Assembly (NCBI GenBank): GCA_049519355.1
Contig: JBEKQV010000001.1
Coordinates: 150,408-214,407 of the forward strand
DNA length: 64,000 nucleotides
Direction of reading: 5' to 3'
From: Candidatus Microgenomates bacterium
GTDB lineage: Bacteria; Patescibacteriota; Microgenomatia; UBA8517
A model generated the notes under the pieces. The model made no database searches and was not told the DNA's origin. It was given only the letters and a program-made list of their open reading frames with translations. The position numbers and the translations under genes were made by a program. This document shows, one piece after another, positions 1,867-25,473 of this stretch (position 1 is the stretch's first letter; the number at the start of each line of letters is the position of its first letter).

Positions 1867-4239
1867 TTAGTCAAATTTTCCTTTATTAAGAAAGAACATC
1901 CCCATCTCAACAACCACTAAATATGTCACCGTAATTCCGATTAGAAAACCGAAATAGAGCAAAGGAAGGTGCGCAAAACTAAAGTAAACCGCAAAAGGAC
2001 TAAAAGGCAAATACAACGCTATCGCCACAACTGCCAAACAAGTTAGCAAAAACGGCAAACTGGGCTTGCTTCTCCAAAAAGGAATCTTTCTGGTCCTTAT
2101 CACAAACACAACCAACACCTGGGTAATAAATGATGTCACAAACCAACCCGTCTGGAAGAAACTACCTCGTGCATGAAATACAAAATACATCACGGCAAAG
2201 GTAAGAAGATCATATAGAGTTCCTATCAAACCAAAAAGAATCATAAAGCGCTTGATATAATCCAGGTCCCAGTTTTTAGGACGAAGAATTTGGTCCGGAT
2301 CGACACTGTCAGTCGGAATCGAAGTTTGAGAAACATCATACAAAATATTGTTCAATAAAATTTGCACCGGGGTCATTGGCAAAAAAGGAAGAATTATAGA
2401 TCCTATTGCAGCGCTAACCATATTTCCAAAGTCGCTACTCGTACCCATCAAAATATATTTGATTGTATTCTGAAAGGTAACTCTCCCCTCATGAATTCCG
2501 TCGGCAATAACTCCAAGACTCTTTCTGAGAAGAACAACAGAGGCAGCGTCCTTGGCAACATCAACTCCGGTATTTACCGAAATTCCAACGTCGGCAATAT
2601 GAAGAGCCGGACTATCATTAACTCCGTCACCTAAATATCCAATTGTATGACCGCCTTTTTTCAGCGCCTGAATTATTCTCGTCTTTTGTGAAGGAGTAAT
2701 CCTGGCAAAAATATCAGTCCCCCAAACTTCTTTTTCCAGTTCACTGTCATTCAATTTTTCTATCTCCGGATTTGTCAAAACTTTTTTGTATTTAAATCCG
2801 ACGTCTCTGGAGATTTTCTCGGCAACAATTTCGTTATCACCCGTCACAATTTTTATAACCACTCCCAGATTTTCAAACTTCCTGAAATCTTCAGCCAAAT
2901 CCTTCTTGGGAACATCGGCAAAACTCATAAATCCCTCAAACCTTAATTCCCTAAATTCACTTTTAACAAGTTTTATGTTGAAATCTTTAAGTTCTTTTGA
3001 GGCAATTGCTATAACTCTAAGTCCTTGTTGTTGCAAATTGGTTGCAATCTTATCTAATTTTCTCTTTGTATCTTCACTTTCTTTCAAACGAGAAATAATC
3101 GCCTCAGGAGAACCTTTGCAAATCAAAATATCTTTACCTTTTTCCGATACGGCTATTGACATAAACCTGTTCTCATAATTAAATGGCATTTCGTAAATCT
3201 TTCTTGGTTTTTCGGAAAGCTGCATATTTTTTGTTTCTGCGAAAGTTACTATTGCCTTATCAATTGAATCCGCAGCGACATGACCGTGAGTAAAACCTGA
3301 ATTACATATAAGTCCGAGTTTTAATATCTCAGGATCTTCTTTCCCTGACGCATTCTGATAGGAACTAAGAGATATCTTTCCTTCAGTCAGAGTTCCTGTT
3401 TTATCAGTACAGAGAACTTCCATATTTCCAAGGTCTTCGATTGAAACAAATTGCTTAACAATTATTTCTTTTTTCGCAAGCTTCTTTGAACCATAGGATA
3501 GAGAAAGCGTTACGATTAGCGGAAGAAGTTCGGGCGTAATTCCCATTGCTACCGTTAACGCAAAAAGAATTGTTTCTACAATCGGATGATGCAAAAACCA
3601 TCCCAACACGATAACGATAACAACTGTAACCGCAGCTATTCTTGCAAGAAGAAGGCTAAAATCTTTAAGGCCTTTTTGGAATTCTGTTAATGGTTTAACC
3701 TTTGCCGCAAGTTCCGAGATTTTTCCGTATTTAGTGTCTGTCCCGATGGCAATTACGGTTCCGTGGGCATTTCCGCCGGTTACGACTGTTCCCATATAAA
3801 CCTCATCACCGTCAATTTTTGCCAATGGCAGGGATTCACCTGTAAGAATTGATTCGTTTACTTCAAGATTTTCTGATGAAATCAAACGGATATCGGCAGG
3901 AATTATTGATCCAGGATGAACGTGGACCTCATCCCCCACGCGTATTTCGGCTACGGGTAATATTTCTTTAACTCCATTTCTGACAACATGTACTGTAAAC
4001 GAAATTCTTTTAATTAAATCACTAACTATTTTTTCCGCCTGATACTCATTCACAAAACCCAAAATTATAGATATCGCCATAACAATCCAGATGGCATGGG
4101 CTTCGGCCTTTTGACCGAGAGCAAATGCCACAACTGTGGAAATCAGGAAAACTAAAAGCAGCGGGTTTTTAAATTGCCGTAAGAAGACTATCCAAGCACT
4201 AAATTTTTGTCTTTTTATCTCATTCGTTTCGGCAGCCAT
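1867..4239 (-). CDS. P-type cation-transporting ATPase (MgtA / Ca2+-ATPase-like, P2/P3 type)
   Basis: 790 aa with the CTDKTGTLT phosphorylation motif, TGDN and GDGVNDSPAL motifs, and about 10 TM segments. Confidence 0.85.
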   Translation of the reverse strand: MAAETNEIKRQKFSAWIVFLRQFKNPLLLVFLISTVVAFALGQKAEAHAIWIVMAISIILGFVNEYQAEKIVSDLIKRISFTVHVVRNGVKEILPVAEIRVGDEVHVHPGSIIPADIRLISSENLEVNESILTGESLPLAKIDGDEVYMGTVVTGGNAHGTVIAIGTDTKYGKISELAAKVKPLTEFQKGLKDFSLLLARIAAVTVVIVIVLGWFLHHPIVETILFALTVAMGITPELLPLIVTLSLSYGSKKLAKKEIIVKQFVSIEDLGNMEVLCTDKTGTLTEGKISLSSYQNASGKEDPEILKLGLICNSGFTHGHVAADSIDKAIVTFAETKNMQLSEKPRKIYEMPFNYENRFMSIAVSEKGKDILICKGSPEAIISRLKESEDTKRKLDKIATNLQQQGLRVIAIASKELKDFNIKLVKSEFRELRFEGFMSFADVPKKDLAEDFRKFENLGVVIKIVTGDNEIVAEKISRDVGFKYKKVLTNPEIEKLNDSELEKEVWGTDIFARITPSQKTRIIQALKKGGHTIGYLGDGVNDSPALHIADVGISVNTGVDVAKDAASVVLLRKSLGVIADGIHEGRVTFQNTIKYILMGTSSDFGNMVSAAIGSIILPFLPMTPVQILLNNILYDVSQTSIPTDSVDPDQILRPKNWDLDYIKRFMILFGLIGTLYDLLTFAVMYFVFHARGSFFQTGWFVTSFITQVLVVFVIRTRKIPFWRSKPSLPFLLTCLAVVAIALYLPFSPFAVYFSFAHLPLLYFGFLIGITVTYLVVVEMGMFFLNKGKFD

Positions 4240-4337: not shown

Positions 4338-4342
4338 TTTAT

Positions 4343-4660
4343 ACTCTGGAAATTAGTAAGCCAGGTTCTGTTTCTCGATGATCATCCATCTACGCCCTCG
4401 GTCCTCGGGACTCGGGAAAGCGTCCTGATATCGTCCCATTCGGAGGTTGCAGCGGGGAGGATTGCCCCTTTTCACTCGTTTTCCCCAACCTTTAGGGTTA
4501 AGGACTCGACATAGTTTCTGTGGCTCTGTACTGGCCAAACCCAAGGTTACCCTTGAGCCTGTCTCCGGCTTACGCCGGACACCCTGCTTTCTGCTGCCTG
4601 GACTTTCCTCTACGCATGGGCAAGCCCACACGCAGCGATCATCCTTTCTCCAGAGTGAGG
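4343..4660 (-). ncRNA. rnpB: RNase P RNA (bacterial type A), about 318 nt
   Basis: Minus strand contains the P4 5' strand AGAGGAAAGTCCAGGC and the 3' strand ACAGAACCTGGCTTA, with CCAGG/CCTGG covariation relative to E. coli CCGGG/CCCGG. P1 pairs ACTCTGGA with TCCAGAGT and P2 pairs GGATGATC with GATCATC. A P3 hairpin GCGTGTGGGCTTGCCCATGCG is present. The overlapping ORFs 4329..4514, 4353..4631 and 4447..4710 are spurious. Confidence 0.9.
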
Positions 4661-4699: not shown

Positions 4700-5683
4700 C
4701 TAATTCTTAATAAAGTATTCCTTCGCCAATACTTGGAGTGTTATTACAAAAGGAATCGAAACAATTACACCCATAATTCCGGCCAGTTTGGCACCAATTG
4801 CAAGTGAAATAAGAACAACCAATGGAGAAACCCCGACGGACTTTTCCATAATTTTAGGTATCAAGACATACCCTTCAAGCTGGTGTACCAGAAACGCAAC
4901 TACGGCAACACCAAACCCGACAAGAGGCGAAATTCCAAAACCGATTAAGATTGCCGGTATGGCAGATACGATCGGTCCTAAAATCGGCACGATTTCCAAT
5001 ATTCCGGCTAAAATCGCAAGTGGCAATGCAAATGGAATTCCGATTAGGAATAGCCCTATATAAGTTCCGAGCCCTATGGAAAACATAAGTATCAGTTGTC
5101 CCCTGGCCCATTTACCAAGCTTTCTTTCCAATATGTCTATGAACCGTCCGATCCTTTCCCTTTTCGCCTCGCCAAATAAGAATCCAAGCTGGTCCTGAAG
5201 TTTGTCTCTAGTCAGGAGCATGTAAAAAGCGAACACCAAAATAGATAAAATAATCAATAAATTAGAAAAAACCGAAAATGTAAAATTCAATACCTGTCCG
5301 GGAACACCACCCAATTGGGTGAGTAAACCCTTAATAATATCGCCGCTTGTTGTTGAATTAATACCGATATTGGAAAGGTAGAAAGGAAGTGCAGTTACAA
5401 AATTTGCGGTTTGTTGTATCAAGGTCGGCACGACCAAAGCAATAACCCCACCAAAAATTCCGATAACAAGAATGTAGGTCAGAAGAACCGATAATGCTCT
5501 GGGGATTTTAATTCTGGTCAATCCCGCAACAAGCGGTTCTAAAATCGTCATAAGGAGAAGGGCAACAAAAAGTTCCAAAATAATTTCGCGGACAAAAAAC
5601 AAAAACCAAAGTCCCAAAAGGAAAAATACTGTAAATATCACAGTCTTATGGGAAATTTCAATCTTGCTTGGCATATTTATCAA
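4700..5683 (-). CDS. AI-2E family transporter (PerM/YdiK, UPF0118)
   Basis: 327 aa polytopic membrane protein. The C-terminal half has the typical AI-2E pattern ...ILEIVPILGPIVSAIPAILIG... Confidence 0.8.
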   Translation of the reverse strand: MINMPSKIEISHKTVIFTVFFLLGLWFLFFVREIILELFVALLLMTILEPLVAGLTRIKIPRALSVLLTYILVIGIFGGVIALVVPTLIQQTANFVTALPFYLSNIGINSTTSGDIIKGLLTQLGGVPGQVLNFTFSVFSNLLIILSILVFAFYMLLTRDKLQDQLGFLFGEAKRERIGRFIDILERKLGKWARGQLILMFSIGLGTYIGLFLIGIPFALPLAILAGILEIVPILGPIVSAIPAILIGFGISPLVGFGVAVVAFLVHQLEGYVLIPKIMEKSVGVSPLVVLISLAIGAKLAGIMGVIVSIPFVITLQVLAKEYFIKN

Positions 5684-5686
5684 CTT

Positions 5687-6661
5687 CTACAATCGTTTCT
5701 CTTTATACCATCTTTCGACCGACTTTTCTACGTTTTCGGGATAATTAAGATCTGTAATGTCAAACCAATGAATTCTTTTATCCTTCTTAAACCAAACCAT
5801 CTGCCGCTTTACATACCTTTTTTCTTCATCCTCCCATTTTCTAATTACACCGCTTTCAGTTTCTTGACCGTCAAAGTAAGATTTCCACTGCCGGTATCCG
5901 ATTGATGACATTGAAGGCATATTCCAATTGACCTGATTTTCCAAAAGACTTTTTATTTCTTTTTTTATACCATCGTTTATCCTTTGAATGACTCTCGTCT
6001 CAATCTTTTTATTAATAACATCTTCCGACGCGGTTAAACCTATTATCAACACATCCAATCCTACCTTCTTTTTTTCAATCTTTTGTTCTTTTTTGACATT
6101 ACCGATTTTCCAGGTTGCCACTTCAATAGCACGAAGTAACCGTCTTGGATTTTTCTTGTCCGAAGCATTCATTTGTCCCGCCTTGATAGTGTCAATTTGT
6201 GCAAGCATATCAAAAAGTTCTTCCGGATTTTTATTTTCGAGATTTTTTCTTAAAGAATTATTTTTAGGAATTGAGGCAGTGGCAATTCCGTCAACCACAC
6301 CTTTTATATAAAGCCCTGTCCCTCCCACCAAAATCGGCATTTTACCTCTTTTGGCAATATCGGATAGAATCCGTTCGGCAAATTTCAAATATTGGGCAAC
6401 GTTAAACTCATGCCTCGGATCGGCTAAATCATATCCCCAAATTTTTACCCCCTCTATTTCGTAAAACCCGAATTTTTTAAACCATGGCAGCTTAATTTTC
6501 GCCCCCTTAGGTAAATCCTTGCCTGTGCCTATGTCGAGCCCTTTGTACACTTGCCTTGAATCGGCAGAAATTATTTCACCATCAATTTTTTTTGCGAGAG
6601 AAATCGCCAATCTGGTTTTTCCCGTCGACGTCGGACCACAAATAACAAGAAGTTTGTTCAT
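5687..6661 (-). CDS. miaA: tRNA dimethylallyltransferase
   Basis: P-loop GPTSTGKT near the N-terminus followed by SADSRQVYKGLDIGT, as in MiaA. Confidence 0.9.
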   Translation of the reverse strand: MNKLLVICGPTSTGKTRLAISLAKKIDGEIISADSRQVYKGLDIGTGKDLPKGAKIKLPWFKKFGFYEIEGVKIWGYDLADPRHEFNVAQYLKFAERILSDIAKRGKMPILVGGTGLYIKGVVDGIATASIPKNNSLRKNLENKNPEELFDMLAQIDTIKAGQMNASDKKNPRRLLRAIEVATWKIGNVKKEQKIEKKKVGLDVLIIGLTASEDVINKKIETRVIQRINDGIKKEIKSLLENQVNWNMPSMSSIGYRQWKSYFDGQETESGVIRKWEDEEKRYVKRQMVWFKKDKRIHWFDITDLNYPENVEKSVERWYKEKRL

Positions 6662-6662
6662 A

Positions 6663-7451
6663 TTAGCTGCTCGCGCTACTATATTTCGTCAACGCATAAT
6701 TCCAGAATTTGAATGAAATAAAAATAGCAATTAGACCAACCAAAAATGCTATCAATACTTCCGGAAGACTGGTTAGCCCCATTATTGCTTTGGCCGGAAG
6801 CGTAATCATAATTCCAACCGGAATTAAGTAAGTCAAAAACGCCTTGAGCGGCTGTTGATAAATATCGATAGGGAGCCTGCCCAAACTTGTTAAGTCTCTA
6901 TAAATCATAACTGTATGATCAACCTCCAGTGTAACTATTGCAAAAGAAAGGACAATAATATGGAAAGCCGTCGCAATCAAAAAACCGTTTGCCAAAAGGA
7001 TAAGGAAAAGTCCGATCTGAACTAAACCGGGGTGCAATAAACTTCCGAAATAAATAGTAAGAATAATTAACGGCGGAATTGTAATAAGGTCAATTACATC
7101 TGCTCCTCCCATAAGAACGCGAAATAGAGCACTAATTGGTTTAACCAAAACCAGGTCAAAATCCCCGTTTATTATCATCGGTCTAAAATTGTAGACTTCC
7201 CGGAACAAAAATTGGGTAATTACATCAATAAGATTGAATGTCAAAAAGAAAAATATTATCTGATTGCTTGAATAACCGGCCAAATTACCGCTACCCACAA
7301 GAAGGAAATATAGAAAACCGAAAAAGAAAATAAATCTAAAAATTTTTCCTATCAAAAATACTGAAAGTGCAAGTTTTTGGCCGATAACTACAGAGAAAGA
7401 ATTCCTGCTCATCATCCACCATATATTGAAATATTTTTTAAATTTTTTCAT
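6663..7451 (-). CDS. ABC-2 family transporter permease
   Basis: 262 aa with 6 predicted TM helices. Sits in an operon with a second permease and an ABC ATPase. Confidence 0.65.
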   Translation of the reverse strand: MKKFKKYFNIWWMMSRNSFSVVIGQKLALSVFLIGKIFRFIFFFGFLYFLLVGSGNLAGYSSNQIIFFFLTFNLIDVITQFLFREVYNFRPMIINGDFDLVLVKPISALFRVLMGGADVIDLITIPPLIILTIYFGSLLHPGLVQIGLFLILLANGFLIATAFHIIVLSFAIVTLEVDHTVMIYRDLTSLGRLPIDIYQQPLKAFLTYLIPVGIMITLPAKAIMGLTSLPEVLIAFLVGLIAIFISFKFWNYALTKYSSASS

Positions 7452-7485
7452 TTCGATTCATAGAGAAACAAACTTCGCTTATACG

Positions 7486-8289
7486 TCATCTCCCAATCGC
7501 CTGATAAACCCTGAGACCTTTTTGCCAAACAAAATTCAGGGTAAACCAAAGTACACCAGTCCAGGCTATGGCAACCATTAATCCTCCAATAAGCGCCGGG
7601 CCGGAGATATTACCCAGATAAACCTCAACCGGAAAATAAATAAGATAAGGAAACGGTGTTGCCAAAACTATTGATTGAAAGATGCCCGGTAAAATATTTA
7701 TGGGAAAAAGAGAACCGGATAGGGATTCAATAATTACAACGGTAACCAAAAAATGGGATCCCCATCCGATTTCAGGGGCCCAAAACGGAATTGAACTAAT
7801 TAGAAAAAGAAGGAAGAAATAAATTAAGATTGCAAGGATAATTGTTGCCGCAAAAGCCAAAAGTGCAACAGGGTTGGTTTGAAAGAAAAATGGAGGCTTC
7901 AAAATAACAAAAAGAACGGAAAACTCAACCGCCGCGAAAATTAAATTTAAGGCTTTACTGGAAATATCTCGTGTGAACCAATATTTAAAATAACTCATAG
8001 GCTTAAGAAGATAATTTGATAGGTCACCCTGTGCAATATCGCTTGACACATCCATCGCCCGGGCGGAAAGAACCAGAGCTCTTACAATCATTATTCCGAA
8101 AACGTAGGTCAGAATTTTAGTTCTGTCATAGCCAAAGATTTGTGTTGTAGGATTTGCAAAAACCGTACTCCAAAGAAAATAAGTCAAAAGAATCTGAAAA
8201 ACATTTCTTACCCTCCACAAAATAAAATTCAGGCGATAGGCAAATTCTTGCTCAAAAGAGATTTTGAAGACACCCCAATACTTTCTCAT
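7486..8289 (-). CDS. ABC-2 family transporter permease
   Basis: 267 aa polytopic membrane protein adjacent to the ABC ATPase. Confidence 0.65.
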   Translation of the reverse strand: MRKYWGVFKISFEQEFAYRLNFILWRVRNVFQILLTYFLWSTVFANPTTQIFGYDRTKILTYVFGIMIVRALVLSARAMDVSSDIAQGDLSNYLLKPMSYFKYWFTRDISSKALNLIFAAVEFSVLFVILKPPFFFQTNPVALLAFAATIILAILIYFFLLFLISSIPFWAPEIGWGSHFLVTVVIIESLSGSLFPINILPGIFQSIVLATPFPYLIYFPVEVYLGNISGPALIGGLMVAIAWTGVLWFTLNFVWQKGLRVYQAIGR

Positions 8290-8297
8290 TTAAACTC

Positions 8298-9284
8298 TCA
8301 CTTTCTAAGACCGCCTTTGAATACTTTACGGATTACATCCTCTATCGGAATTTCTTCTATTGTTAAATCGTCGACCGGAAAATTCTGGAGAAGTTCAGCG
8401 GCCGCAACCGCTGTGGCGGAACGCGGAACCGAAAGAATAACTTCCGGAAATGCCAATTTTTTAACTTTTCCGATTTTTTCCAAATCCGCAATTCCGTCTT
8501 CTTTTGAAAGGGTGGCCTTAATTATCTTTTCCTTGGCAAACTTTTCAACCAGTTCCTCAAGCGCTCCGTCAAAAAGAATTTTGCCTTCGTCTATTACGAT
8601 TACACGGCGGGCGAGATTTACCAAATCGTCCATATTATGAGAAGTCAAAAGGATCGTGGCCGCATACTTCTTGTTATATTCGTAAATAAAATCTCGCATT
8701 TTTTGCTGAGCAACAAGGTCAAGCCCGATAGTTGGTTCATCTAAGAAAAGAACCTTCGGCCTGTATAGTAAAGCTGCAGTTAACTCCATCCGCATTCTCT
8801 GTCCCAGAGAAAGTTTCCTGACGGGAGTGTTCAGAAGTTTACTAAGTTCCAAAAGTTCAACAAGCTCTCTAAGATTTTCTTCGTACTCACGTCTCGGAAT
8901 TTCATAAATTGCTCTGTTTAGCTCAAAAGTTTCTATCGCCGGAAGATCCCACCAAAGTTGATTCTTTTGCCCCATTACAAGGGCAATTTGTTTAAGGAAC
9001 TCAGGTTTTCTTTGCCATGGATCATGTTCTAAAACTTCAACAAAACCACTTGTCGGATAAAGGAGTCCTGAAAGAATCTTAAGGGTAGTTGTTTTCCCGG
9101 CACCATTTGGACCGATAAAACCAACAAGCTCCCCTGGTTGAATTACGAAAGAAACTCCCCTAATTGCGTTAACGGTTTTTTTCTTCGGGGAAAAAAGGGA
9201 TTTAAACGCACCGGAAAGACCCGGTTCTTTTTGATTAATTTCAAAATTTTTTACGAGATTATCAACAATGACAGTCCGATCCAT
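8298..9284 (-). CDS. ABC transporter ATP-binding protein
   Basis: Walker A GPNGAGKTT, signature LSLGQRMR, Walker B LLFLDEP, plus a C-terminal extension of about 90 aa. Confidence 0.9.
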   Translation of the reverse strand: MDRTVIVDNLVKNFEINQKEPGLSGAFKSLFSPKKKTVNAIRGVSFVIQPGELVGFIGPNGAGKTTTLKILSGLLYPTSGFVEVLEHDPWQRKPEFLKQIALVMGQKNQLWWDLPAIETFELNRAIYEIPRREYEENLRELVELLELSKLLNTPVRKLSLGQRMRMELTAALLYRPKVLFLDEPTIGLDLVAQQKMRDFIYEYNKKYAATILLTSHNMDDLVNLARRVIVIDEGKILFDGALEELVEKFAKEKIIKATLSKEDGIADLEKIGKVKKLAFPEVILSVPRSATAVAAAELLQNFPVDDLTIEEIPIEDVIRKVFKGGLRK

Positions 9285-10567: not shown

Positions 10568-11663
10568 ATTGCGCTTCTTTCTCAAGTTTATTTGCAATGT
10601 CGTGGGCAAGTATTGTTAATCTGTCATCATCAACTTCTTCAGGATTAACAATTACTCTAACGTCGCGGCCGGCTTGAAAAGCATAAACAGTATCGACCCC
10701 AGGGAAGCTTTTGGCAATCTCCTCAATCTTAGTCATCCTTTTGACATAATCTTCATGGGGTTCGTACCTTGCACCGGGCCGCGAACCGGAAATTGCATCC
10801 GCCATCCAAACAATTACGCTTTCATTAGAAGAAAATGGTCTGTCTTCATGATGTTCGGCAACGCAGGCGACAACTTCTTTCGGTATTCCGTATTTTTTGA
10901 GAAGGTTTACCCCCAACTCGACATGATTTCCCTCTTCATCTGTGACCACTTTTCCTACGTCATGAAGAAGACATCCGAGTCGCACAATATCAACATTTGC
11001 CCCGATTTCTTCGGCAATGGCAACTCCGATTTTGGTTTCCTCAATCGTGTGAATTCCAAGGTTTTGTCCGTAGGAAGTTCTAAATCTGAAGCGCCCGATA
11101 AGCCGCATAAGCTCAACCGGCAAGTTAAAAACTCCACATTCGTGGGTAATTTTCTTGCCTTCCTCCAAAAGCACGTCTTCCATCTGAGCTTTCACTTGTC
11201 TAATTACTTCTTCAATTCTTGAAGGCTGGATTCTGGCATCCTTTATAAGGATTTCGAGGGCCCTTTTGGCAATTTCACGCCTGACCGAGTCAAATGAGGA
11301 GAGCCTGATTTCATTAGTTTCATCAATTTCAATCTCAACCCCCGCTTCCTTCTCAAAAGTGCGGATGTTACGGCCTCCTGCGCCAATTATACGGCCCTTT
11401 ACGTCCTCATTCGGCACAGTTACGGAAGAAACGGTATATTCGGCCACATAGCCTGTCGCACCATGTCTCATAGCATCGAGAAGAATCTCCTGAGCCTTCT
11501 GGCCGGCCTCTTCTTTTATCTTTTCCTCAGCTGCCCTGATCTTCTTGGCAATCTCTCCTGTAAGTTCGGTCTGAACCTCATCCAGGAGGGCCTTTTTGGC
11601 CTCATCAGAGGTCATATGAGCCACTTTGCTCAACTTTTCGGTATATTCGTCTTTTGTGGTCAT
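10500..11663 (-). CDS. rny: Ribonuclease Y, N-terminally short form (no TM anchor or long coiled coil)
   Basis: KH domain GRIIGAGGRNIR and HD domain LLHDVGK, with strong overall similarity to RNase Y from residue about 120 onward. The ORF cannot extend upstream because of an in-frame stop. Start is ATG 11663 or TTG 11681. Confidence 0.85.
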   Translation of the reverse strand: MTTKDEYTEKLSKVAHMTSDEAKKALLDEVQTELTGEIAKKIRAAEEKIKEEAGQKAQEILLDAMRHGATGYVAEYTVSSVTVPNEDVKGRIIGAGGRNIRTFEKEAGVEIEIDETNEIRLSSFDSVRREIAKRALEILIKDARIQPSRIEEVIRQVKAQMEDVLLEEGKKITHECGVFNLPVELMRLIGRFRFRTSYGQNLGIHTIEETKIGVAIAEEIGANVDIVRLGCLLHDVGKVVTDEEGNHVELGVNLLKKYGIPKEVVACVAEHHEDRPFSSNESVIVWMADAISGSRPGARYEPHEDYVKRMTKIEEIAKSFPGVDTVYAFQAGRDVRVIVNPEEVDDDRLTILAHDIANKLEKEAQYAGQIKVSVIREVRATETTSAK

Positions 11664-13473: not shown

Positions 13474-13528
13474 TCCGGTATCTTTTTACTATGGTACCAA
13501 ACAAAATGCAATGAGGAAAAATTCTCAG

Positions 13529-13599
13529 TCGGGGTGCTGAGAATTGAACTCAGTTCTGACGCACCCCATGCGCCAATTCTACCGGTGAACTACACCCCG
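13529..13599 (-). tRNA. tRNA-Pro (anticodon GGG), 71 nt, CCA not encoded
   Basis: Hand-folded cloverleaf: acceptor CGGGGTG/CACCCCG with the C1:G72 pair and A73 typical of bacterial tRNA-Pro; D arm GTTC-ACCGGTA-GAAT; anticodon arm GGCGC-ATGGGGT-GCGTC; T arm CTGAG-TTCAATT-CTCAG. Confidence 0.85.
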
Positions 13600-18763: not shown

Positions 18764-19392
18764 TTATTTATCCTTTCCCCGATGAGCTTAACCAAATCTT
18801 GGGAGATTGCATCAACCGGCTGCTCACCGTCAACATCAATAACCTCAGTTTCTCTTCTCAGTAGTTCAATAAGGGGTTCCACTTGCCCTCTAAACCAAGC
18901 CAAACGCTTTTTAATAGATTCAGGTTTGTCGTCCTCTCTTTGAACAAGGGTTTTAGGATCAATATCGGCAGGGGGTTTATCGGTAATAAGATTGTAAATT
19001 TTCCCCGTGGCCGGATCCATGCGTCTGGCCGAAAGTCTTTCAATCGTAACTTTCTCGCTGACAGTCAAAACGATCACCAAATTGATTTTTACATGCCTAT
19101 CTTTCAACCAACTTCTAAAAAATTCATACTGGGAAACAGTCCTGGGAAAACCGTCGAAAAGAATATTATCATAAAGATTTTGTTCATCGAGATAGGCAGC
19201 CAAGTACGAGGTAAATTCCTTATCCGGAACTATTTTGCCAGAATCCAAAGTTTTTTTCAGGTCGGGGTGGGTTTCAGCCATTCGCCTCAAATACGCGCCT
19301 GATTCAAAATAAAAAAGATCGAACTTCTCTATCAAAATCCTAGCCTGAGTGCCTTTTCCTGAACCTGAAGGGCCAATTAAAAGAATATTCAT
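18760..19392 (-). CDS. adk: Adenylate kinase (short LID type)
   Basis: P-loop GPSGSGKGTQ and the conserved NMP/LID regions. Confidence 0.95.
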   Translation of the reverse strand: MNILLIGPSGSGKGTQARILIEKFDLFYFESGAYLRRMAETHPDLKKTLDSGKIVPDKEFTSYLAAYLDEQNLYDNILFDGFPRTVSQYEFFRSWLKDRHVKINLVIVLTVSEKVTIERLSARRMDPATGKIYNLITDKPPADIDPKTLVQREDDKPESIKKRLAWFRGQVEPLIELLRRETEVIDVDGEQPVDAISQDLVKLIGERINK

Positions 19393-20684
19393 TATATAAA
19401 CCCTTCGTACCTTTCCATGATAAGTTCCCCTTCCATCTCACGAATAAGTTCCAGTGCCACCGAAACAACAATCAAAACGCTCGTGCCCCCGATGGCCAAG
19501 TTAGTTGCCCCAACAAAATTTTTGAAAAGTGAAGGAAGAACAGCAACGGCGCCAAGAAACGCACCTCCCACCAAAGTTAATCTGGAAAGAACATGACCAA
19601 GATATTTTTCTGTTTCTTTTCCGGGACGAATTCCAGGGATAAATCCGCCGCCTTTTTGTAAATCCTCCGAAATTTTCTCGGGATTAAATACAACAGCTGT
19701 GTAAAAATATGTGAATCCAAAAACCAGGAAGAAATAAGTAATATTATAAATTGCGCCTTGCGGATTAAATGAAGAGCTTATACTCCGCGCAATATTTGCA
19801 ACAGCCGGATTACTCACACCCGACAGAAACTGCCCGACCAGGGATGGTAATAGGACCAAAGATACGGCAAAAATGATAGGTATGACTCCCGCCTGATTAA
19901 GCCGTAACGGCAAGTACGAAGTCATTGCAAGGCCGCTCTCGGTCCGTCTTTTGGCATAATGGATTGGGATTTGACGTGCAGCTTCGCTGATAAAAATAAC
20001 CAAGCCGACAATCACTGCCGCAATAATTAAAAATAGAGCTACCTTAAGAATATCTTGTGATTGAAGAACACTTAAAGATTGACCAAAGGTAACAGGAAGG
20101 CGGGCAACGATTCCCGTAAAAATAAGGAGCGAAACTCCGTTCTTAAATCCATATTCAGTAATAAGTTCCCCGAGCCAAACGGCAAAAATTGTTCCGGCTG
20201 CCATGGTAATTACAAGAGTAAGAAGTGCAATTGGAGTTAAGTTAGGAATAACTTTCTGACTCCGAAGAAGCGCATACATCCCGAATCCCTGAAGAGCCGC
20301 CAAAGGAACAGTCAAAAGCCGGGTATATTGATTTATTTTTTCCTGTCCGAATTCCCCTTCTTTCTGTAATTCTTCAATCGACGGAATAACGTAACCTAAA
20401 AGTTGGAAAATAATTGAGGCATTGATATAAGGGTTTAGGCCCAATGCCAAAATTGAAAAGTTTGCCAGAGTTCCACCGGAAAAAACATCCAAAAGAGAAA
20501 GGAGCGGGCTCCCTGCGAAAAGTGCGGCCAGCGTGGTTCTATCAATCCCCGCCGCAGGAATATGTCCGGCAAGTCTAAAAACAACAAGTATTAAAGCCGT
20601 AATAAGTAGCTTCTTCCTTATAGAAGGAGTTTTAACCGCTTTCGAAAAAAATTGGCCAACAGATTTAAGCATTTGTACGGACAA
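19392..20684 (-). CDS. secY: Preprotein translocase subunit SecY
   Basis: 430 aa with 10 TM segments and conserved SecY blocks. Start is either TTG at 20684 or ATG at 20669 (MLKSVGQ). Confidence 0.95.
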
Positions 20685-20740
20685 TTATACCGTAACTCCG
20701 ATTCCAAAGACAGAGTTTTTTCGGATAAAATCCTATAATC

Positions 20741-20769
20741 TTGACGAAGTTATCTCTCTGTGGTAATAT
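20741..20769 (+). promoter_or_regulatory. Candidate sigma-70 promoter TTGACG-17-TAATAT on the plus strand
   Basis: TTGACGaagttatctctctgtggTAATAT; the only transcript it would drive ends at the hairpin 20792..20822. Confidence 0.35.
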
Positions 20770-20791
20770 TACGAGGCTAAATAATCAAGTT

Positions 20792-20822
20792 CAGGCTGGT
20801 TTGCAGCCTGATTTTTGTTTTT
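20792..20822 (+). terminator. Rho-independent terminator (CAGGCTG-gtttg-CAGCCTG + TTTTTGTTTTT)
   Basis: Perfect 7-bp stem with a 5-nt loop and a T-run on the plus strand. No plus-strand gene lies upstream. Confidence 0.5.
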
Positions 20823-20968
20823 AGCACTCATTATCATTTGCACTTTCAAATATTTGCGGAGGCTATCCCTAAAGTTGGTGGGTTGCGCCTTGGGTTTCAG
20901 ATAATCTGGCATCCAAAGAGCAACACACCATATCCGGGAAGTTTCATAAACACAAAAAAGGAGAATGT

Positions 20969-21466
20969 ATGTACGATCTATTTCAATCGGTTGGAAAGAC
21001 CTTTAAGCACAGCTTTCTTCTCAGGGCCACTTTCGAGAACGGAAAATGTGGAAAGATCGAAATCGCATTGGTTCACGAGATGGAAGTCGAAACTAAGGGA
21101 TCAGGAATCAGGTACTTCGTAAGAGATAACTACGAAGTATGGCGCGGAATCCAGGAACCGGAAGATTGTAACGAGAAGGAATTGGATCCCTGCGAACGCC
21201 ACGCCGACACGGCCTGCTTACCCCATACAATGGAAGAAATGGATGTTCTCAACACTTCCAACAGGAGCCGTTTTCTCTCCCTGGGGTTAACAACAGCTCG
21301 TGAATCCTACTCGGAATATGTGCCGAATAATCCAGACCGCGAGATCGCCGTCATTTTTGAAAACTACTCCGATCTTCTGGGTTACCTTGGTAAGGCTCTT
21401 ACCAAGATCGGCGTACCCCACAAGGATCAAGGAATGATCCTCGAGGATATCAACTCGAAACTCTAG
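20969..21466 (+). CDS. Hypothetical protein, 165 aa, Cys-containing, higher GC than neighbours
   Basis: AAGGAG SD 5 nt upstream of the ATG. The ORF is about 50% GC against a roughly 38% background. Contains GKCG and Cx6Cx7C. Followed by a hairpin and T-run near 21505..21535. Confidence 0.5.
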   Translation: MYDLFQSVGKTFKHSFLLRATFENGKCGKIEIALVHEMEVETKGSGIRYFVRDNYEVWRGIQEPEDCNEKELDPCERHADTACLPHTMEEMDVLNTSNRSRFLSLGLTTARESYSEYVPNNPDREIAVIFENYSDLLGYLGKALTKIGVPHKDQGMILEDINSKL

Positions 21467-21574
21467 GCCAAGGCCCGCCCGCATAAAAATATTTGATCTG
21501 CAAAAAACTCGGAGTGATCCCAAAAAGACCCCCGAGTTTTTTGTTGGCAAAAATCCAAGTGCTACAATGAATTA

Positions 21575-22234
21575 ATGAAATTATTGATTTGCCTCATCGG
21601 CATAACTGTAGTTGCCGCAGTTATTTATTATTTTCTTTCTCAAAAAAAGGTCCGGAACAAAAAATCAAAAAACCAAAGAAGTGCAGTTCTAATTACAGCT
21701 TTAGTTACAGTTATTCTACTGGGAGTCCTCGCTTTGGCGGTTTACAAATCCCAAAACCAGGCGGATCTACAATGTTCAGTCACACATACCACAACCGATT
21801 CTCCACCTGCAAGTTTAAAAACGGCAATGGATTATTTCTTACAAGGTAACTATGACTACGACACAGGAAACTGTGTCAAAGCAATTGCCGACTACACAAC
21901 TTCCATTAGTCTCAATCCCAGAGACGCCGAAGTTTACAATAACCGCGCCTACACATATATGCGTATGAGAGATTTTAAAGATGCACTTCCCGATTTGGAA
22001 AAGGCTCTTGCCATAAATCCGAATTATATTCAGGCACTAATGAATAGAGGCGATATTCACAATTACTATTACGAAATTAATAGATCCAGCGCTATAGCGG
22101 ATTATGAAAAAGTAATTTCTTTAGGAGGAACTCGCGGAACGAGCGTTTGTGGGCACCTTCTTTTAGCCCGTACCAATGGTTGGACCTTAAGCACCATCTT
22201 TGAACTTCCCTTTGTAAACGCCAACTGCCAATAA
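21575..22234 (+). CDS. TPR repeat-containing membrane protein
   Basis: Two N-terminal TM helices followed by TPR-like repeats (AEVYNNRAYTYMRMRDFKDALPDLEKALAINPNYIQALMNRGDIH...). Confidence 0.7.
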   Translation: MKLLICLIGITVVAAVIYYFLSQKKVRNKKSKNQRSAVLITALVTVILLGVLALAVYKSQNQADLQCSVTHTTTDSPPASLKTAMDYFLQGNYDYDTGNCVKAIADYTTSISLNPRDAEVYNNRAYTYMRMRDFKDALPDLEKALAINPNYIQALMNRGDIHNYYYEINRSSAIADYEKVISLGGTRGTSVCGHLLLARTNGWTLSTIFELPFVNANCQ

Positions 22235-22273
22235 GCTTCTGAAAGCACCGGCCTTTTTTGTTAAACTAAAGCC

Positions 22274-23038
22274 GTGGAAAAACAAATAACTTTTGAAAAC
22301 TCAAATGGGATAAAACTAGCCGGGATTTTAAATGAAACCGGAAACCACGAAAACATCTTAATAATGGTCCACGGTTTTAATTCCAACAAAAACTCCAAAA
22401 ACCTGGTACGGCTTTCGGAAATGTTGGATAAAGCAGAAATCAGTTCATTTCGATTTGATATTTACGGCCATGGCAAAAGCGGAGGAAATTTTGAAGATAT
22501 TACAATTTCCGAAACGGTTGGTGATATTCTTCAGGCAATAAAATTTGTAAAAGAGCAGGGATATAAAAACATAGGACTTCTGGGCTCGAGTTTTGGAGGA
22601 ATAGCAAGTATCATGGCAGCTTCAAAAAGCAAGGATGTTTCATTCCTCAGCCTAAAGTCCCCCGTCTCCGATTATTTGAAACTTGAGAAATCAAGATTTA
22701 CCGAAAAAGAATTCGGGGATTGGAAAAGAACCGGCTACAGGAATTACAAAGATGACGGGAAAACTGTAAAACTAAAATATACATTTATCGAAGATTTTAA
22801 AAATAATAACGCATATAGAGCCGCAAAGTTAATTAATATTCCGGTACTTATTGTCCACGGAAGCGCCGACAAAGACGTTCCGCTCTCCCAAAGCAAAAAA
22901 CTTATGAATTTTCTTCCGAACGGAAAACTAATAACAATCGAGGGAGCTGACCATCGTTACACAAACGAAACTCACGCCACCAAAATGTTAAAAATATTTT
23001 ATGATTTTGGGGTCAATAATTTTTCCCATGGCAGATGA
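22274..23038 (+). CDS. Alpha/beta hydrolase fold protein (esterase/peptidase-like)
   Basis: HGFNS oxyanion region, GSSFGG nucleophile elbow (GxSxG), and acid/His residues in HGSADKDVP ... GADHRY. GTG start at 22274. Confidence 0.75.
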   Translation: MEKQITFENSNGIKLAGILNETGNHENILIMVHGFNSNKNSKNLVRLSEMLDKAEISSFRFDIYGHGKSGGNFEDITISETVGDILQAIKFVKEQGYKNIGLLGSSFGGIASIMAASKSKDVSFLSLKSPVSDYLKLEKSRFTEKEFGDWKRTGYRNYKDDGKTVKLKYTFIEDFKNNNAYRAAKLINIPVLIVHGSADKDVPLSQSKKLMNFLPNGKLITIEGADHRYTNETHATKMLKIFYDFGVNNFSHGR

Positions 23039-23540
23039 ACTACTTGATTTAATAAACATTAACGACGAAGTAATCGGAACCGGGTGGAAGAGTGAAATGC
23101 ACCAAAAGGGTTTACTTCATAGAACCGTGATTGCCGAGGTTATCGGAAAAGGAAGAATCTGGACACTTGTTGAACAAGCGCCGGGCAAACAGGATGTCGG
23201 GCAGTTCGTTTCTGCGGTTGGTGGACATGTTAAATCGGGTGAAAGCAACGAAGATGCCTTAAGAAGAGAGGCGGGCGAGGAGTTCGGACTTACAGAAAAG
23301 TTTGATTTCAAATATATCGGCAAAAGAATCTACAACCGCGAGGTTAACGGAAATAAAGAAAACCACCTCTTCATTCTTTATGAAATTTATTCCAATCAGA
23401 TACCAGTACTTGATAGTGAGGCGGTTGGTTACAAAAGATTTGAGGAGAAAGAACTTGTAAGGGCTCTAAAAGAAAATCCAGCCGCGTTTGGTGCCCCATT
23501 CCACTTCATCATCAGGGAGTTTTATCCAAATTTAATTTAA
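23028..23540 (+). CDS. NUDIX hydrolase
   Basis: Nudix box GGHVKSGESNEDALRREAGEEFGL (Gx5Ex7REuxEExGu). ATG at 23028 is preferred; an ATG at 23001 is also possible and overlaps the previous gene. Confidence 0.8.
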   Translation: MADELLDLININDEVIGTGWKSEMHQKGLLHRTVIAEVIGKGRIWTLVEQAPGKQDVGQFVSAVGGHVKSGESNEDALRREAGEEFGLTEKFDFKYIGKRIYNREVNGNKENHLFILYEIYSNQIPVLDSEAVGYKRFEEKELVRALKENPAAFGAPFHFIIREFYPNLI

Positions 23541-23592
23541 ATTGCTGTTGTAAAGTCTCTGAAAAGATCCATTTGCGTGGTAAAATTGCCAT

Positions 23593-24519
23593 ATGATCGT
23601 TGTAGCTAGTTACAATAGTCCGGATATTGACGGTATCGCCTGCTCAATTGCCTACGCAGAACTTCTAAATAAACTCAAAGAGAAGGCGGAAGCGACATAT
23701 TTTGGGATGTTGGGTTTGGAAGATGAGTTCGTTAAAAAATATACAAATTATTTTCCTATTAAAAAACATGAAGGAAAATATGAAGCCAATACTCAATTTG
23801 TCATTGTCGATACTACTGATCCTAATGGAATAGAACCTTCAATTCCACCCGAGAACATAATAGAAATTTTTGATCACCGGCAACAAGTTTTTCTTGAGAA
23901 ATATATAAATGCCAAAGCAAAAATCGAACTCGTCGGGTCATGTGCAACTTTGATCACCGAAGAATTCAAAAAGAATAAGGTTGAGCCTTCTGAAAATGCC
24001 GCAATTTATTTGTATTCCGCGATTATTTCCAATACCGTAAATTTCAAAAATTTGGTTACGACACAGCGTGACAAAGATGCCGTCAACTGGCTTAAAAACT
24101 TTATGTCCTTGCCAGATGATTATGTAAAGACAATGTTTAATTCAAAATCAAATGTTACTTCAGGTAATTTATATGAAGTTATTGACCAAGATTTTGCGAT
24201 TAAAAATTATGGTAATAAATCGGTCGGGATAGCACAAATAGAAATAACAGATCTTGAAGCAAGAATTGCAAAATGGGGTGAAAAGTTACCGGAAGTACTT
24301 AACCGGCTTAAAAAAGAAAATCATTTGGATTACATTTTCTTCACGGGAATAGATATTTTTGAAGGATTTAATATTTTCTACATGATTGACGAAGAATCAA
24401 GAAAGTTATTCACAAAGGCTCTTGAAATTCCAGATTTAAAATCAGGATACAAAACCAAAGAAATCATCATGCGGAAGCAGATAGGCCCAAAACTAGAGAA
24501 ACTGGCGGGAAGTTTCTGA
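23593..24519 (+). CDS. DHH-DHHA2 phosphoesterase (family II inorganic pyrophosphatase-like), variant motifs
   Basis: N-terminal NSPDIDGIACSIAYAEL resembles PpaC HQNPDTDTICSAIAYA. Motif III reads DHR (IFDHRQ) instead of DHH. A C-terminal RKQ matches the DHHA2 substrate-binding SRKKQ. Confidence 0.65.
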   Translation: MIVVASYNSPDIDGIACSIAYAELLNKLKEKAEATYFGMLGLEDEFVKKYTNYFPIKKHEGKYEANTQFVIVDTTDPNGIEPSIPPENIIEIFDHRQQVFLEKYINAKAKIELVGSCATLITEEFKKNKVEPSENAAIYLYSAIISNTVNFKNLVTTQRDKDAVNWLKNFMSLPDDYVKTMFNSKSNVTSGNLYEVIDQDFAIKNYGNKSVGIAQIEITDLEARIAKWGEKLPEVLNRLKKENHLDYIFFTGIDIFEGFNIFYMIDEESRKLFTKALEIPDLKSGYKTKEIIMRKQIGPKLEKLAGSF

Positions 24520-24523
24520 AAAG

Positions 24524-24955
24524 TTATTTTGAAGATTTCTCGAGAGCTTTGACTTGTGACTTTTTGGGGGTTCCGACTTTAAATGTAAATTTCTTTTCAT
24601 TCTTGCCGATTCCGATTATTTTAACTCCATGAACTTTGGCCAGCTTTGCTTTCAAAAATCCCTTTTTGACCAAAAGCTCAACCGTAATTCCACTTCCAAC
24701 CGGTAAAACCTCGATTTTTGAATAACTTATGGCAATGGGTTTTATATTTTCATGGAATTTTCCTTTTCCGCGCATTTTGGGAAGTCTTTTCAAAAGAGAT
24801 TTTTTCATCTTCATTCCTTCAAAAAGAACGTTTACACTTCCCCTGCTTTTTTGTCCTTTTTGCCCACGTCCGGAGGTGTGGCTCCCTTTGCCGCTTCCCA
24901 TACCGCGTCCCACTCTCTTTTTTGATCTTTGAACAACTTTAGGTAATCTTGTCAT
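24524..24955 (-). CDS. rplO: 50S ribosomal protein L15
   Basis: Gly/Arg-rich N-terminus [26 protein letters not shown]. Confidence 0.95.
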
Positions 24956-24978
24956 ATTTTGTCTGAAATAAGCTTCGC

Positions 24979-25473
24979 TTATTTTCTCTTCATCTCAACT
25001 ATTTCGGAAATTTTCTCCAGAGCTTTTAATGTTGCGTAAACATTTGAAATCTTATTTTTTGTTCCGAGAATTTTTCCTACAGCGTCTCTAATTCCGGCCG
25101 CCTCAAGAACAACTCTCATTGGCCCCCCCGCAATAATTCCGGATCCGGGAGGAGCGGGTTTAAGTAAAACCTTCGCCGCCGAAAACTTCTCGTGTACTGA
25201 GTAAGGAACGGTTGTTCCGGCCAAAGGAATTACCGTCAATTTTCTTTTGGCTGCATCAATTGCTTTTCTGATGGCGTTTCTGACATCTGTCGCCTTAGCA
25301 AGTCCTATTCCGACTTTTCCTTTTCTATCGCCCACAACCACAAGAGCCGAAAATCTGATTTGGTTTCCGCCTTTGGTCTTTTTACTGATTCTGTTGATTT
25401 GGACCACTGTTTCCTCAAACTCTTTGGGCGGTCCTTCATAGTTATTTGTGCTTCTATTTCTCGTAAATCCCAT
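24979..25473 (-). CDS. rpsE: 30S ribosomal protein S5
   Basis: dsRBD plus S5 C-terminal domain (...[22 protein letters not shown]...). Confidence 0.95.

Follow-up and report, generated by a model that had tools for sequence, protein, structure and literature searches.

Why should five genes of the opposite orientation lie between rplO and secY, at a site inside the S10-spc-alpha super-operon, whose gene order is among the most conserved in bacteria? This arrangement occurs in a stretch of 64,000 nucleotides from Candidatus Microgenomates bacterium (assembly GCA_049519355.1, contig JBEKQV010000001.1, positions 150,408 to 214,407 of the forward strand; hereafter the window), where a plus-strand block, termed here g1 to g5, sits among minus-strand genes. 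Comparison with related genomes leads us to think it likely that a long-lived variable region, specific to one subclade of Woesebacteria (Microgenomates), occupies the rplO-secY operon boundary as a flexible-genome hotspot, and that the block is its local state.

The rplO-secY junction in the window and its relatives

Every long open reading frame (ORF) between 1423 and 20684, or between 24524 and the window end, lies on the minus strand. The one strand switch is a block of five plus-strand ORFs that occupies 20969-24519 and sets secY and rplO 3.8 kb apart. The genes concerned are as follows:

19392-20684, minus strand: secY (Pfam SecY, E 7e-106; TIGR00967, 395 bits)
20969-21466, plus strand: g1, 165 aa, no domain, member of a rare uncharacterized family, in a variable slot
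21575-22234, plus strand: g2, 219 aa, N-terminal membrane segment and tetratricopeptide (TPR) repeats (TPR_1, E 4e-15)
22274-23038, plus strand: g3, 254 aa, alpha/beta-fold serine hydrolase (Hydrolase_4, E 5e-18; Peptidase_S9, E 4e-13)
23028-23540, plus strand: g4, 170 aa from the start used by other gene callers (the ORF opens at 23001, an alternative start that gives 179 aa), NUDIX (E 9e-10)
23593-24519, plus strand: g5, 308 aa, DHH and DHHA2 domains
24524-24955, minus strand: rplO (ribosomal protein L15; TIGR01071, E 5e-21, 75.1 bits, cut-off 77.95), at the end of the S10-spc block

An earlier reading of this DNA, made from its letters alone (the sequence-only reading), had described five plus-strand genes wedged between rplO and secY as the sole strand switch, with the DHH gene running into rplO without a terminator. 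Each of these points is borne out. The stop codons of the convergent g5 and rplO are 4 nt apart, and folding of their junction gave no significant structure (z score +0.4 on both strands). The assignments then made for the last four genes (TPR protein, alpha/beta hydrolase, NUDIX and DHH-DHHA2) are supported by profile searches.

The order secY-g1-g2-g3-g4-g5-rplO was identical on 23 contigs, some of them 70-870 kb long, drawn from JGI, ENA and Logan samples and produced by three assembly pipelines. Ten of these contigs were aligned, and they are 99.97-100% identical across the island. No strain-level variants of the island were seen, every g2-carrying contig (n = 23) having the same order. 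Such agreement among independent contigs, in order and in sequence, indicates that the block is neither a chance arrangement nor an assembly error. Compared with the canonical end of the spc operon (rpsE-rpmD-rplO-secY-adk/map), the window differs in two respects: rplO does not adjoin secY, and rpmD (L30) is missing, with rpsE (24979-25473) and rplO separated by 23 nt only (24956-24978). Bacteria of the candidate phyla radiation (CPR) are known to have lost uL30 (PMC9297842).

The closest SecY sequences, at 76-85% identity, come from metagenome-assembled genomes (MAGs) of Candidatus Woesebacteria and Microgenomates. The comparison covered 49 loci that encode SecY relatives, each from a different GTDB species; L15, S5, L18, SecY, Adk and Map were located in them by tblastn. 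Gaps over 500 bp were counted as split. A gap of about 0.56-7.6 kb separates rplO from secY in 16 of the 20 members of one Woesebacteria subclade, a count that takes in the window and the metagenomic locus L060, and the two genes are contiguous in the other four (L011, L025, L033 and L027). None of the 24 outgroup genomes has an rplO-secY gap above 240 bp, and all split junctions fall within one subclade of a neighbor-joining tree of SecY, Map and S5. In a further relative, L032, there is no rplO within 10 kb of secY. The spc-secY junction had been called universally linked, which overstates the case. The block had also been taken for a singular island, with the proviso, named beforehand, that a split common in the lineage and filled with unrelated genes would speak against this. 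Such a split, with unrelated and variable cargo, is what the synteny comparison revealed.

Two side observations concern these genomes. Some relatives also carry an insertion between secY and adk (L021, 11285-12444; L039, 11314-12643; L049, 11279-14035); the L021 insert contains the cassette frame described below, and the L039 insert contains this frame plus two small unannotated ORFs. In addition, many GTDB species-representative MAGs (L015, L017, L022, L025 and other CAZ*/CAY* entries) are titled 'uncultured Gammaproteobacteria bacterium', evidently wrongly; their SecY proteins are 70-85% identical to those of Woesebacteria, and their ribosomal cluster is of the CPR type.

Across the subclade, the gap holds some 60 protein families, most of them seen once, and those that recur vary in order and orientation. 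Annotation with Pfam, NCBIfam and PADLOC identified SNase-type nucleases, GNAT acetyltransferases, Trp-repressor-like proteins, an NTP_transf_6 nucleotidyltransferase, a cytidine deaminase, a sigma-70 region 4 protein, APH-type kinases, MazG-like proteins, rRNA adenine dimethylase (Erm/KsgA-like) proteins, a putative cyclase, serine hydrolases, several unrelated NUDIX proteins, an RMKL-type methyltransferase, an EamA transporter, and HD, GDSL, HAD and S51 enzymes. A ParD/RelE-like toxin-antitoxin pair lies in the gap of L026 (8765-9286). For the window itself, PADLOC returned a single weak NUDIX match (E 3e-5) and nothing else that would mark a defense island. In L032, the relative with no rplO within 10 kb of secY, an OLD/GajA-like AAA-TOPRIM nuclease is encoded upstream of secY (2148-4073; PADLOC Old, E 3e-47).

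Turnover of this cargo is evident among close relatives. L025 and L026, with flanks 94-96% identical, differ by a clean indel of 1.77 kb comprising four genes. The gap measures 114 bp in L011 and 4.6 kb in L013, and in L012 the conserved frame alone makes up the entire gap. The singleton cargo families are gains. Where species have a cargo protein in common, its sequences have as a rule diverged further than SecY. A recent transfer of such cargo between species finds no support; cargo identity exceeded SecY identity in two pairs only (by 5.8 and 1.1 percentage points).

Two genes of the block are, judging by their orthologues, long-term residents of the gap. Orthologues of g5 at 70% and 85% identity are found between rplO and secY in relatives (L060 and the P0003 contig), and orthologues of g2 at 52-61% identity occupy the same gap in L013, L014, L018 and L060. 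A recent insertion of the block does not fit with these data. The locus L060 has the order SecY, a 98-aa ORF, DHH, CYTH, GrpB, TPR, NUDIX and so on to L15, and the P0003 contig has the order SecY, NUDIX, DHH. Moreover, L011 and L020, placed close to the window by the tree, carry about 16 nt 3' of the rplO stop codon (TTTTCAGAAACTTCC at 9896-9912 in L011; CTTTCTAGAAACTTCC at 9470-9486 in L020) that are the reverse complement of the final codons of g5 and its stop (Gly-Ser-Phe-stop). This remnant is probably a deletion scar, and it suggests that the compact state of L011 and L020 is derived, having arisen by deletion.

What might have opened this junction to other genes? Alignment with relatives places the true start of secY, which heads a secY-adk-map-infA-rpsM... 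unit, probably at the ATG at 20672, giving 426 aa. Just upstream is a promoter-like block:

20684-20715, minus strand: CTCTGTCTTTGGAATCGGAGTTACGG-TATAAT, with TATAAT at 20684-20689, 11 nt before the ATG

Its consensus among relatives reads CTGTyTTTAGGATCA..TTTGGGATATAAT, then about 11 nt, then ATG. The block is kept in all split-clade members examined, including those with contiguous rplO and secY. The sister genomes L024 and L034 have no such block, and there rplO runs up to secY. No Shine-Dalgarno (SD) site was seen at secY, and its mRNA may be nearly leaderless. The earlier expectation that secY must use its own promoter is thereby very probably right, given the conserved TATAAT element.

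These observations are consistent with the following scenario. A promoter of its own, giving rise to a nearly leaderless transcript, would have made secY independent of the spc genes and opened the junction to insertions; with a promoter directly upstream of secY, loss of read-through from spc would be tolerated. The junction would then gain and lose accessory genes in either orientation. In the window, an older layer (g2-g5) would be expressed as one transcript from a promoter termed P2, colliding head-on with transcription of rplO, with no terminator between them. A newer layer, g1, would be a foreign-like ORF lodged in a conserved, insulated expression frame that adjoins secY.

Several points weigh against this account. 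The divergence of shared cargo relative to SecY suggests that much of the distribution comes from genes long resident in the gap and since then differentially lost and rearranged; ancient insertion followed by differential loss, rather than repeated gain, could thus lie behind much of it. The scar of g5 is about 16 nt long and no more. Substitutions at catalytic positions, described below, call for caution about the substrate of g5. All promoter, terminator and operon calls are based on sequence. Finally, the gap sizes are approximate, being taken from the ends of tblastn hits, and the tree is a simple neighbor-joining one.

The g2-g5 genes and a pyrophosphatase-like protein

The candidate promoter of the older layer lies at the right border of the frame around g1:

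21544-21568, plus strand: P2, TTGGCA ... TGC-TACAAT with an extended -10 element; TGCTACAAT at 21560-21568

The ATG of g2 follows 6 nt downstream of P2, with no SD site, and the g2 mRNA may be leaderless. From the layout of the genes, g2-g5 are probably co-transcribed from P2. A block of the P2 type, TTTTTTGTTGG-AAAAT...TGnTA-AAT, also precedes the DHH gene in L060. The GC content and codon usage of g2-g5 are typical of the host, and so is the tetranucleotide profile.

The presence together of alpha/beta-hydrolase, NUDIX and DHH enzymes invites the idea that g3, g4 and g5 form a dedicated module for turnover of nucleotides or second messengers, placed beside translation and secretion genes for the sake of co-regulation. 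The tight spacing of the genes and the overlap of g3 with g4 suggest co-transcription, as this idea would have it. In g3, the nucleophile elbow GSSFG is present along with an Asp and a His, and NCBIfam yielded no equivalog assignment. The NUDIX box of g4 (GHVKSGESNEDALRREAGEEFG) is intact and fits the pattern Gx5Ex7REUxEExGU, and the best NCBIfam matches of g4 are to YfcD and isopentenyl-diphosphate isomerase types, far under the cut-offs.

In g5, Pfam places DHH at residues 2-144 and DHHA2 at 179-303. A profile of the g5 family aligns over its full length with the family II pyrophosphatase of Bacillus subtilis (1k23, E 1e-30), and it also matches 2iw4 (E 1e-30). A cyclic-dinucleotide phosphodiesterase, 5xsi, matches the DHH half alone (E 2e-4), and the C-terminal domain of g5 is DHHA2 rather than the DHHA1 of the cyclic di-AMP and nanoRNA phosphodiesterases (GdpP, DhhP, NrnA). 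The earlier label of DHH-DHHA2 phosphoesterase can therefore be kept as to domains and refined to a protein of the family II pyrophosphatase type.

In architecture, length (308 aa) and full-length profile match, g5 resembles PpaC, the Mn-dependent family II enzyme. It differs from PpaC in its score on NF003877 (145.6 bits), which is below the NCBIfam equivalog cut-off of 283, and in four ligand positions that are replaced. The metal and substrate ligands of family II pyrophosphatases are His9, Asp13, Asp15, Asp75, His97, His98, Asp149, Lys205, Arg295 and Lys296 (B. subtilis numbering). In g5, Tyr7, Arg96, Asn147 and Ala202 stand for His9, His98, Asp149 and Lys205, so that the motif reads DHR instead of DHH, and Asp11, Asp13, Asp73, His95 and the C-terminal Arg-Lys pair are retained. 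Across 22 homologues these substitutions are fixed or almost fixed, and the altered metal site is thus a feature of the family.

The g5 family is widespread in Patescibacteria, with 396 matches at E <= 1e-10. An alignment-based metagenome scan found about 80 loci of g5 homologues at 67% identity or less, and none of these lies near rplO or secY; a metagenome scan with g5 as a single sequence gave no matches. Of 82 loci with g5 homologues, 8 have a NUDIX box within 3 kb, roughly double the background density, and NUDIX genes also accompany the g5 orthologues of the P0003 contig and L060. In L060, a CYTH/CyaB-like gene (10929-11513; TIGR00318, 92.9 bits against a cut-off of 57.95), whose score passes the threshold for class IV adenylate cyclase (CyaB), starts 8 nt after the g5 orthologue, a pairing that suggests a pyrophosphate-producing enzyme set next to a pyrophosphatase. 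In weak agreement with these observations, g5 may remove pyrophosphate or short polyphosphate released by neighboring enzymes of the NUDIX or CYTH kind.

These associations, like the gene spacing, speak for a turnover module. Against it stand the DHHA2 type of g5, with its full-length match to pyrophosphatases; the fact that the NUDIX genes beside g5 orthologues are not orthologous to g4; the functional heterogeneity of the cargo in relatives' gaps; and the lack of any recurrent link of g3 or g2 with g5 outside the clade. No functional link of g2 or g3 to g4 and g5 was found. Since g2-g5 do not travel together elsewhere and the NUDIX-DHH signal is weak, the nucleotide or second-messenger role proposed from the sequence alone has little support, and we regard it as unlikely.

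A conserved frame around g1

Of the five genes, g1 stands apart in composition. Its GC content at third codon positions (GC3) is 0.56, compared to 0.38 +/- 0.033 in the other genes (z 5.5). The atypical GC noted earlier for the first gene is thus real. As a separate matter, the strongest tetranucleotide outlier of the window is at 5501-8500 (z 3.1-3.3), above anything in the island. Two other descriptions of g1 did not hold up. It is not Cys-rich, having 4 Cys in 165 aa, and it is not strictly an orphan; an exhaustive HMMER search of 1.84 billion representative proteins found 25 homologues, all remote and full length. An AlphaFold2 model made with the alignment has a predicted local distance difference test score (pLDDT) of 95.2, versus 48.6 from the single sequence. 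The model has no significant match in the PDB, and the fold may be undescribed.

On either side of g1 are non-coding elements that recur, in the same order, in five other species. We refer to the set as the frame. Its parts in the window, and its position elsewhere, are as follows:

20728-20968 and 21467-21570: the frame in the window; the left module comprises about 220 nt of non-coding sequence
20741-20769, plus strand: P1, a candidate promoter of sigma-70-like type, TTGACG-17 nt-TAATAT with TG, directed away from secY; left end of the frame
20773-20830 (core 20791-20811), unstranded: Term1, a hairpin between an A-run and a T-run, with the look of a bidirectional intrinsic terminator
20837-20860, plus strand: IR-L, TTTGCACTTTCAAATATTTGCGGA, left inverted-repeat arm, kept in six species
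20879-20929, plus strand: HP2, GGGTTGCGCCTTGG...CCAAAGAGCAAC, a hairpin of about 50 nt, followed by the SD site AAGGAG at 20958-20963
21478-21504, plus strand: IR-R, CCCGCATAAAAATATTTGATCTGCAAA, right arm, reverse complement of IR-L
21502-21545, unstranded: Term2, a second candidate terminator, likewise read as bidirectional, with A-run, hairpin and T-run 3' of g1 (-24.4 kcal/mol, z -2.3)
9074-9946 of L012, minus strand; 9177-9948 of L030, minus strand; 9353-9980 of L060, plus strand: frame in the rplO-secY gap of relatives
11277-12055 of L021, minus strand; 11318-12085 of L039, minus strand: frame in the secY-adk insertion of relatives

The full order is P1, Term1, IR-L, HP2, SD site, ORF, IR-R, Term2 and P2. 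In the window, L012, L030 and L060, the frame is divergent from secY. Positions TTGAC and TA...T of P1 are invariant in the six species. Term1 folds strongly on both strands (plus strand, -26 kcal/mol, z -5.8; minus strand, -22 kcal/mol, z -5.9), and four of its 12 pairs show compensatory changes. For HP2, RNAalifold predicts 20 pairs, six of them changed on both sides. A covariance model, R1, scores 84 bits on the plus strand and 39 bits on the minus strand. The stems of Term2 vary among species yet remain complementary.

After the stop codon of the ORF, all six loci share CCGCAAT..GAAGTGCAAA in IR-R, a terminator of the Term2 kind, and the TTTTTTGTTGG-AAAAT... block with an extended -10 element (P2), which would drive g2 in the window and the DHH gene in L060. 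IR-L and IR-R are complementary in every species. The duplex of the window has a predicted energy of -21.7 kcal/mol (z -4.3), and values across the six species range from -12 to -22 kcal/mol (z -1.9 to -5.8 versus shuffled sequences). L030 carries a compensatory change, TTGCGT in IR-L and ACGCAA in IR-R (G-to-T and C-to-A).

What the frame encloses is not conserved. The ORFs in the slot range from 64 to 165 aa in the six species, are soluble or membrane-bound, and are all mutually dissimilar and free of Pfam domains. In three of the six, GC3 is strongly foreign (z 5.7, 6.8 and 3.2). Both frame modules are single copy at each locus and adjoin secY. Searches of 1.15 Mb of loci with nhmmer and the covariance model recovered the six known species and no further copies. 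The frame has no match in Rfam 15 (best E-value 3.1), did not appear in viral contigs in two pattern scans, and is absent from the loci of g1 homologues.

Taken together, these features allow a tentative proposal, which we hold to be possible and no stronger than that: the frame would be an undescribed, insulated slot for gene capture and expression in Woesebacteria, in which single foreign ORFs are exchanged from start to stop, and around which the hotspot grew. The inverted repeats of about 22 nt could act in DNA as sites of recombination or exchange, or in RNA as a clamp between the 5' and 3' untranslated regions (UTRs) or as a processing site. No recombinase was found near the frame. Independent assemblies of different samples (L001-L009) share three break points in the island, at about 20850-20864 (within or beside IR-L), at 21001 and at 22193-22221, for which low coverage or structural variation in the population are possible causes.

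A simpler notion is that the frame consists of the UTRs and terminators of one ancestral gene, with the slot ORFs as its extremely diverged descendants and no exchange at all. The single copy of the frame, its constant place beside secY, and the short, domain-free character of every slot ORF are all in keeping with this. Common descent is harder to reconcile with ORFs that differ in length (64-165 aa) and membrane topology and have no detectable similarity, or with the strongly foreign GC3 (z 3.2-6.8) of half of them. In addition, the g1 family, with its 25 full-length homologues and confident fold, occurs elsewhere without the frame. We therefore think descent from a single gene improbable.

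Could an integrative element or transposon instead have brought all five genes together, and recently, into an otherwise intact spc-secY operon? A mobile island of this kind might be expected from the strand switch, from the foreign-like GC3 of g1 and from the absence of the block in L011, the closest contiguous relative. A direct repeat (14 of 16 nt; CGGGAAGTTTC(AT/TG)AAA) brackets g1-g5 at 20935-20950 and 24506-24521; one copy precedes the ribosome-binding site of g1 and the other is at the g5 stop, a suggestive position. However, repeats of this quality are at chance level, 14 comparable ones being present in 4.5 kb. Pfam and NCBIfam scans of the five proteins revealed no integrase, recombinase or transposase, and there are no integrase-type genes among some 36 cargo proteins sampled from relatives. 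The only tRNA gene of the window (13528-13599) is at least 7 kb away. Only g1 deviates in composition, g2-g5 being host-like; orthologues of g5 and g2 sit in the same gap elsewhere in differing arrangements; and the g5-end remnant of L011 and L020 points to a compact state derived by deletion. These data argue strongly against a mobile island, which we judge very unlikely.

As to RNA genes in general, those detected in the window are an RNase P RNA of class A (4341-4654, minus strand; 104.6 bits), the one Rfam match above the gathering threshold, and the above tRNA, a tRNA-Pro(GGG) on the minus strand, with no others.

An assembly or binning artefact, that is, a chimeric contig joining halves of the ribosomal cluster through foreign DNA, can be dismissed as next to impossible: several independent contigs do end inside the island, but the shared order on 23 contigs from three pipelines, the near-identity of the ten aligned and the same kind of split in related species all contradict it.

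Known systems and implications

Flexible genomic islands, whether of the replacement or the additive type, and integration hotspots can be flanked by conserved core genes (for example, Lopez-Perez et al. 2014, PMC4033161). The rplO-secY region is like them in having the same flanking core genes, differing cargo, fast turnover in near-identical genomes and no obvious mobility genes, and the conserved flanks could anchor homologous recombination. It differs in its site, within a super-operon of such conserved gene order, and in its cargo, made up of small enzymes and toxin-antitoxin or defense genes in place of surface-polysaccharide clusters.

In SAR11 (Pelagibacter), the hypervariable region HVR2 lies between the 16S-23S pair and the 5S rRNA gene (Wilhelm et al. 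2007, discussed in bioRxiv 10.64898/2026.04.03.716430). HVR2 is likewise a positionally conserved hypervariable region that splits an otherwise contiguous cluster of the translation apparatus across a whole lineage of small genomes; it differs in being about 47 kb long, anchored by tRNA genes and filled with surface-modification genes. The rplO-secY region spans 0.5-7.6 kb between protein-coding genes and is not anchored at a tRNA. By this comparison, HVR2 is the closest analogue in kind.

The frame, for its part, invites comparison with integron cassettes (attI/attC with the Pc promoter) and with attC clusters that have no integrase. They have in common a resident promoter, one promoterless ORF that differs from case to case, structured inverted repeats at the border and foreign composition. 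In contrast to integrons, the frame offers a single slot rather than an array, and its repeats, conserved in sequence, flank the ORF on both sides. The frame showed no recognizable GTTRRRY core site, and no IntI-type integrase is among the called genes and cargo ORFs of the frame-carrying loci of about 20 kb, the rest of those genomes being unsearched.

Interruption of this junction is presumably not peculiar to Woesebacteria. In Mycobacterium tuberculosis, several unrelated genes lie between rplO (Rv0723) and secY (Rv0732). That case is alike in showing that rplO and secY need not adjoin and that secY-adk-map can stand as a unit of its own, and unlike in that the arrangement is not known to vary or to hold species-specific hypervariable cargo. 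Literature searches turned up no account of such an rplO-secY hotspot or of the frame for Patescibacteria.

Ribosomal-protein phylogenies and the binning of contigs from uncultured bacteria both rest on the S10-spc-alpha cluster, which is regarded as nearly invariant. The CPR subclade described here shows that even such a cluster can take up flexible content, presumably after an internal promoter has uncoupled its two halves. The extraction of marker genes by synteny is affected, and several assemblies break at rplO-secY. The region also provides a compact and easily located view of gene gain and loss in reduced genomes that are seemingly without classical mobile-element machinery. If the frame is a true device for exchange and expression, it would be a novel way for a genome to sample foreign genes, and its insulated expression site could serve future genetic work in these bacteria. 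Lastly, the g5 family, pyrophosphatase-like, found across the CPR and altered in its metal site, bears on how these organisms handle pyrophosphate.

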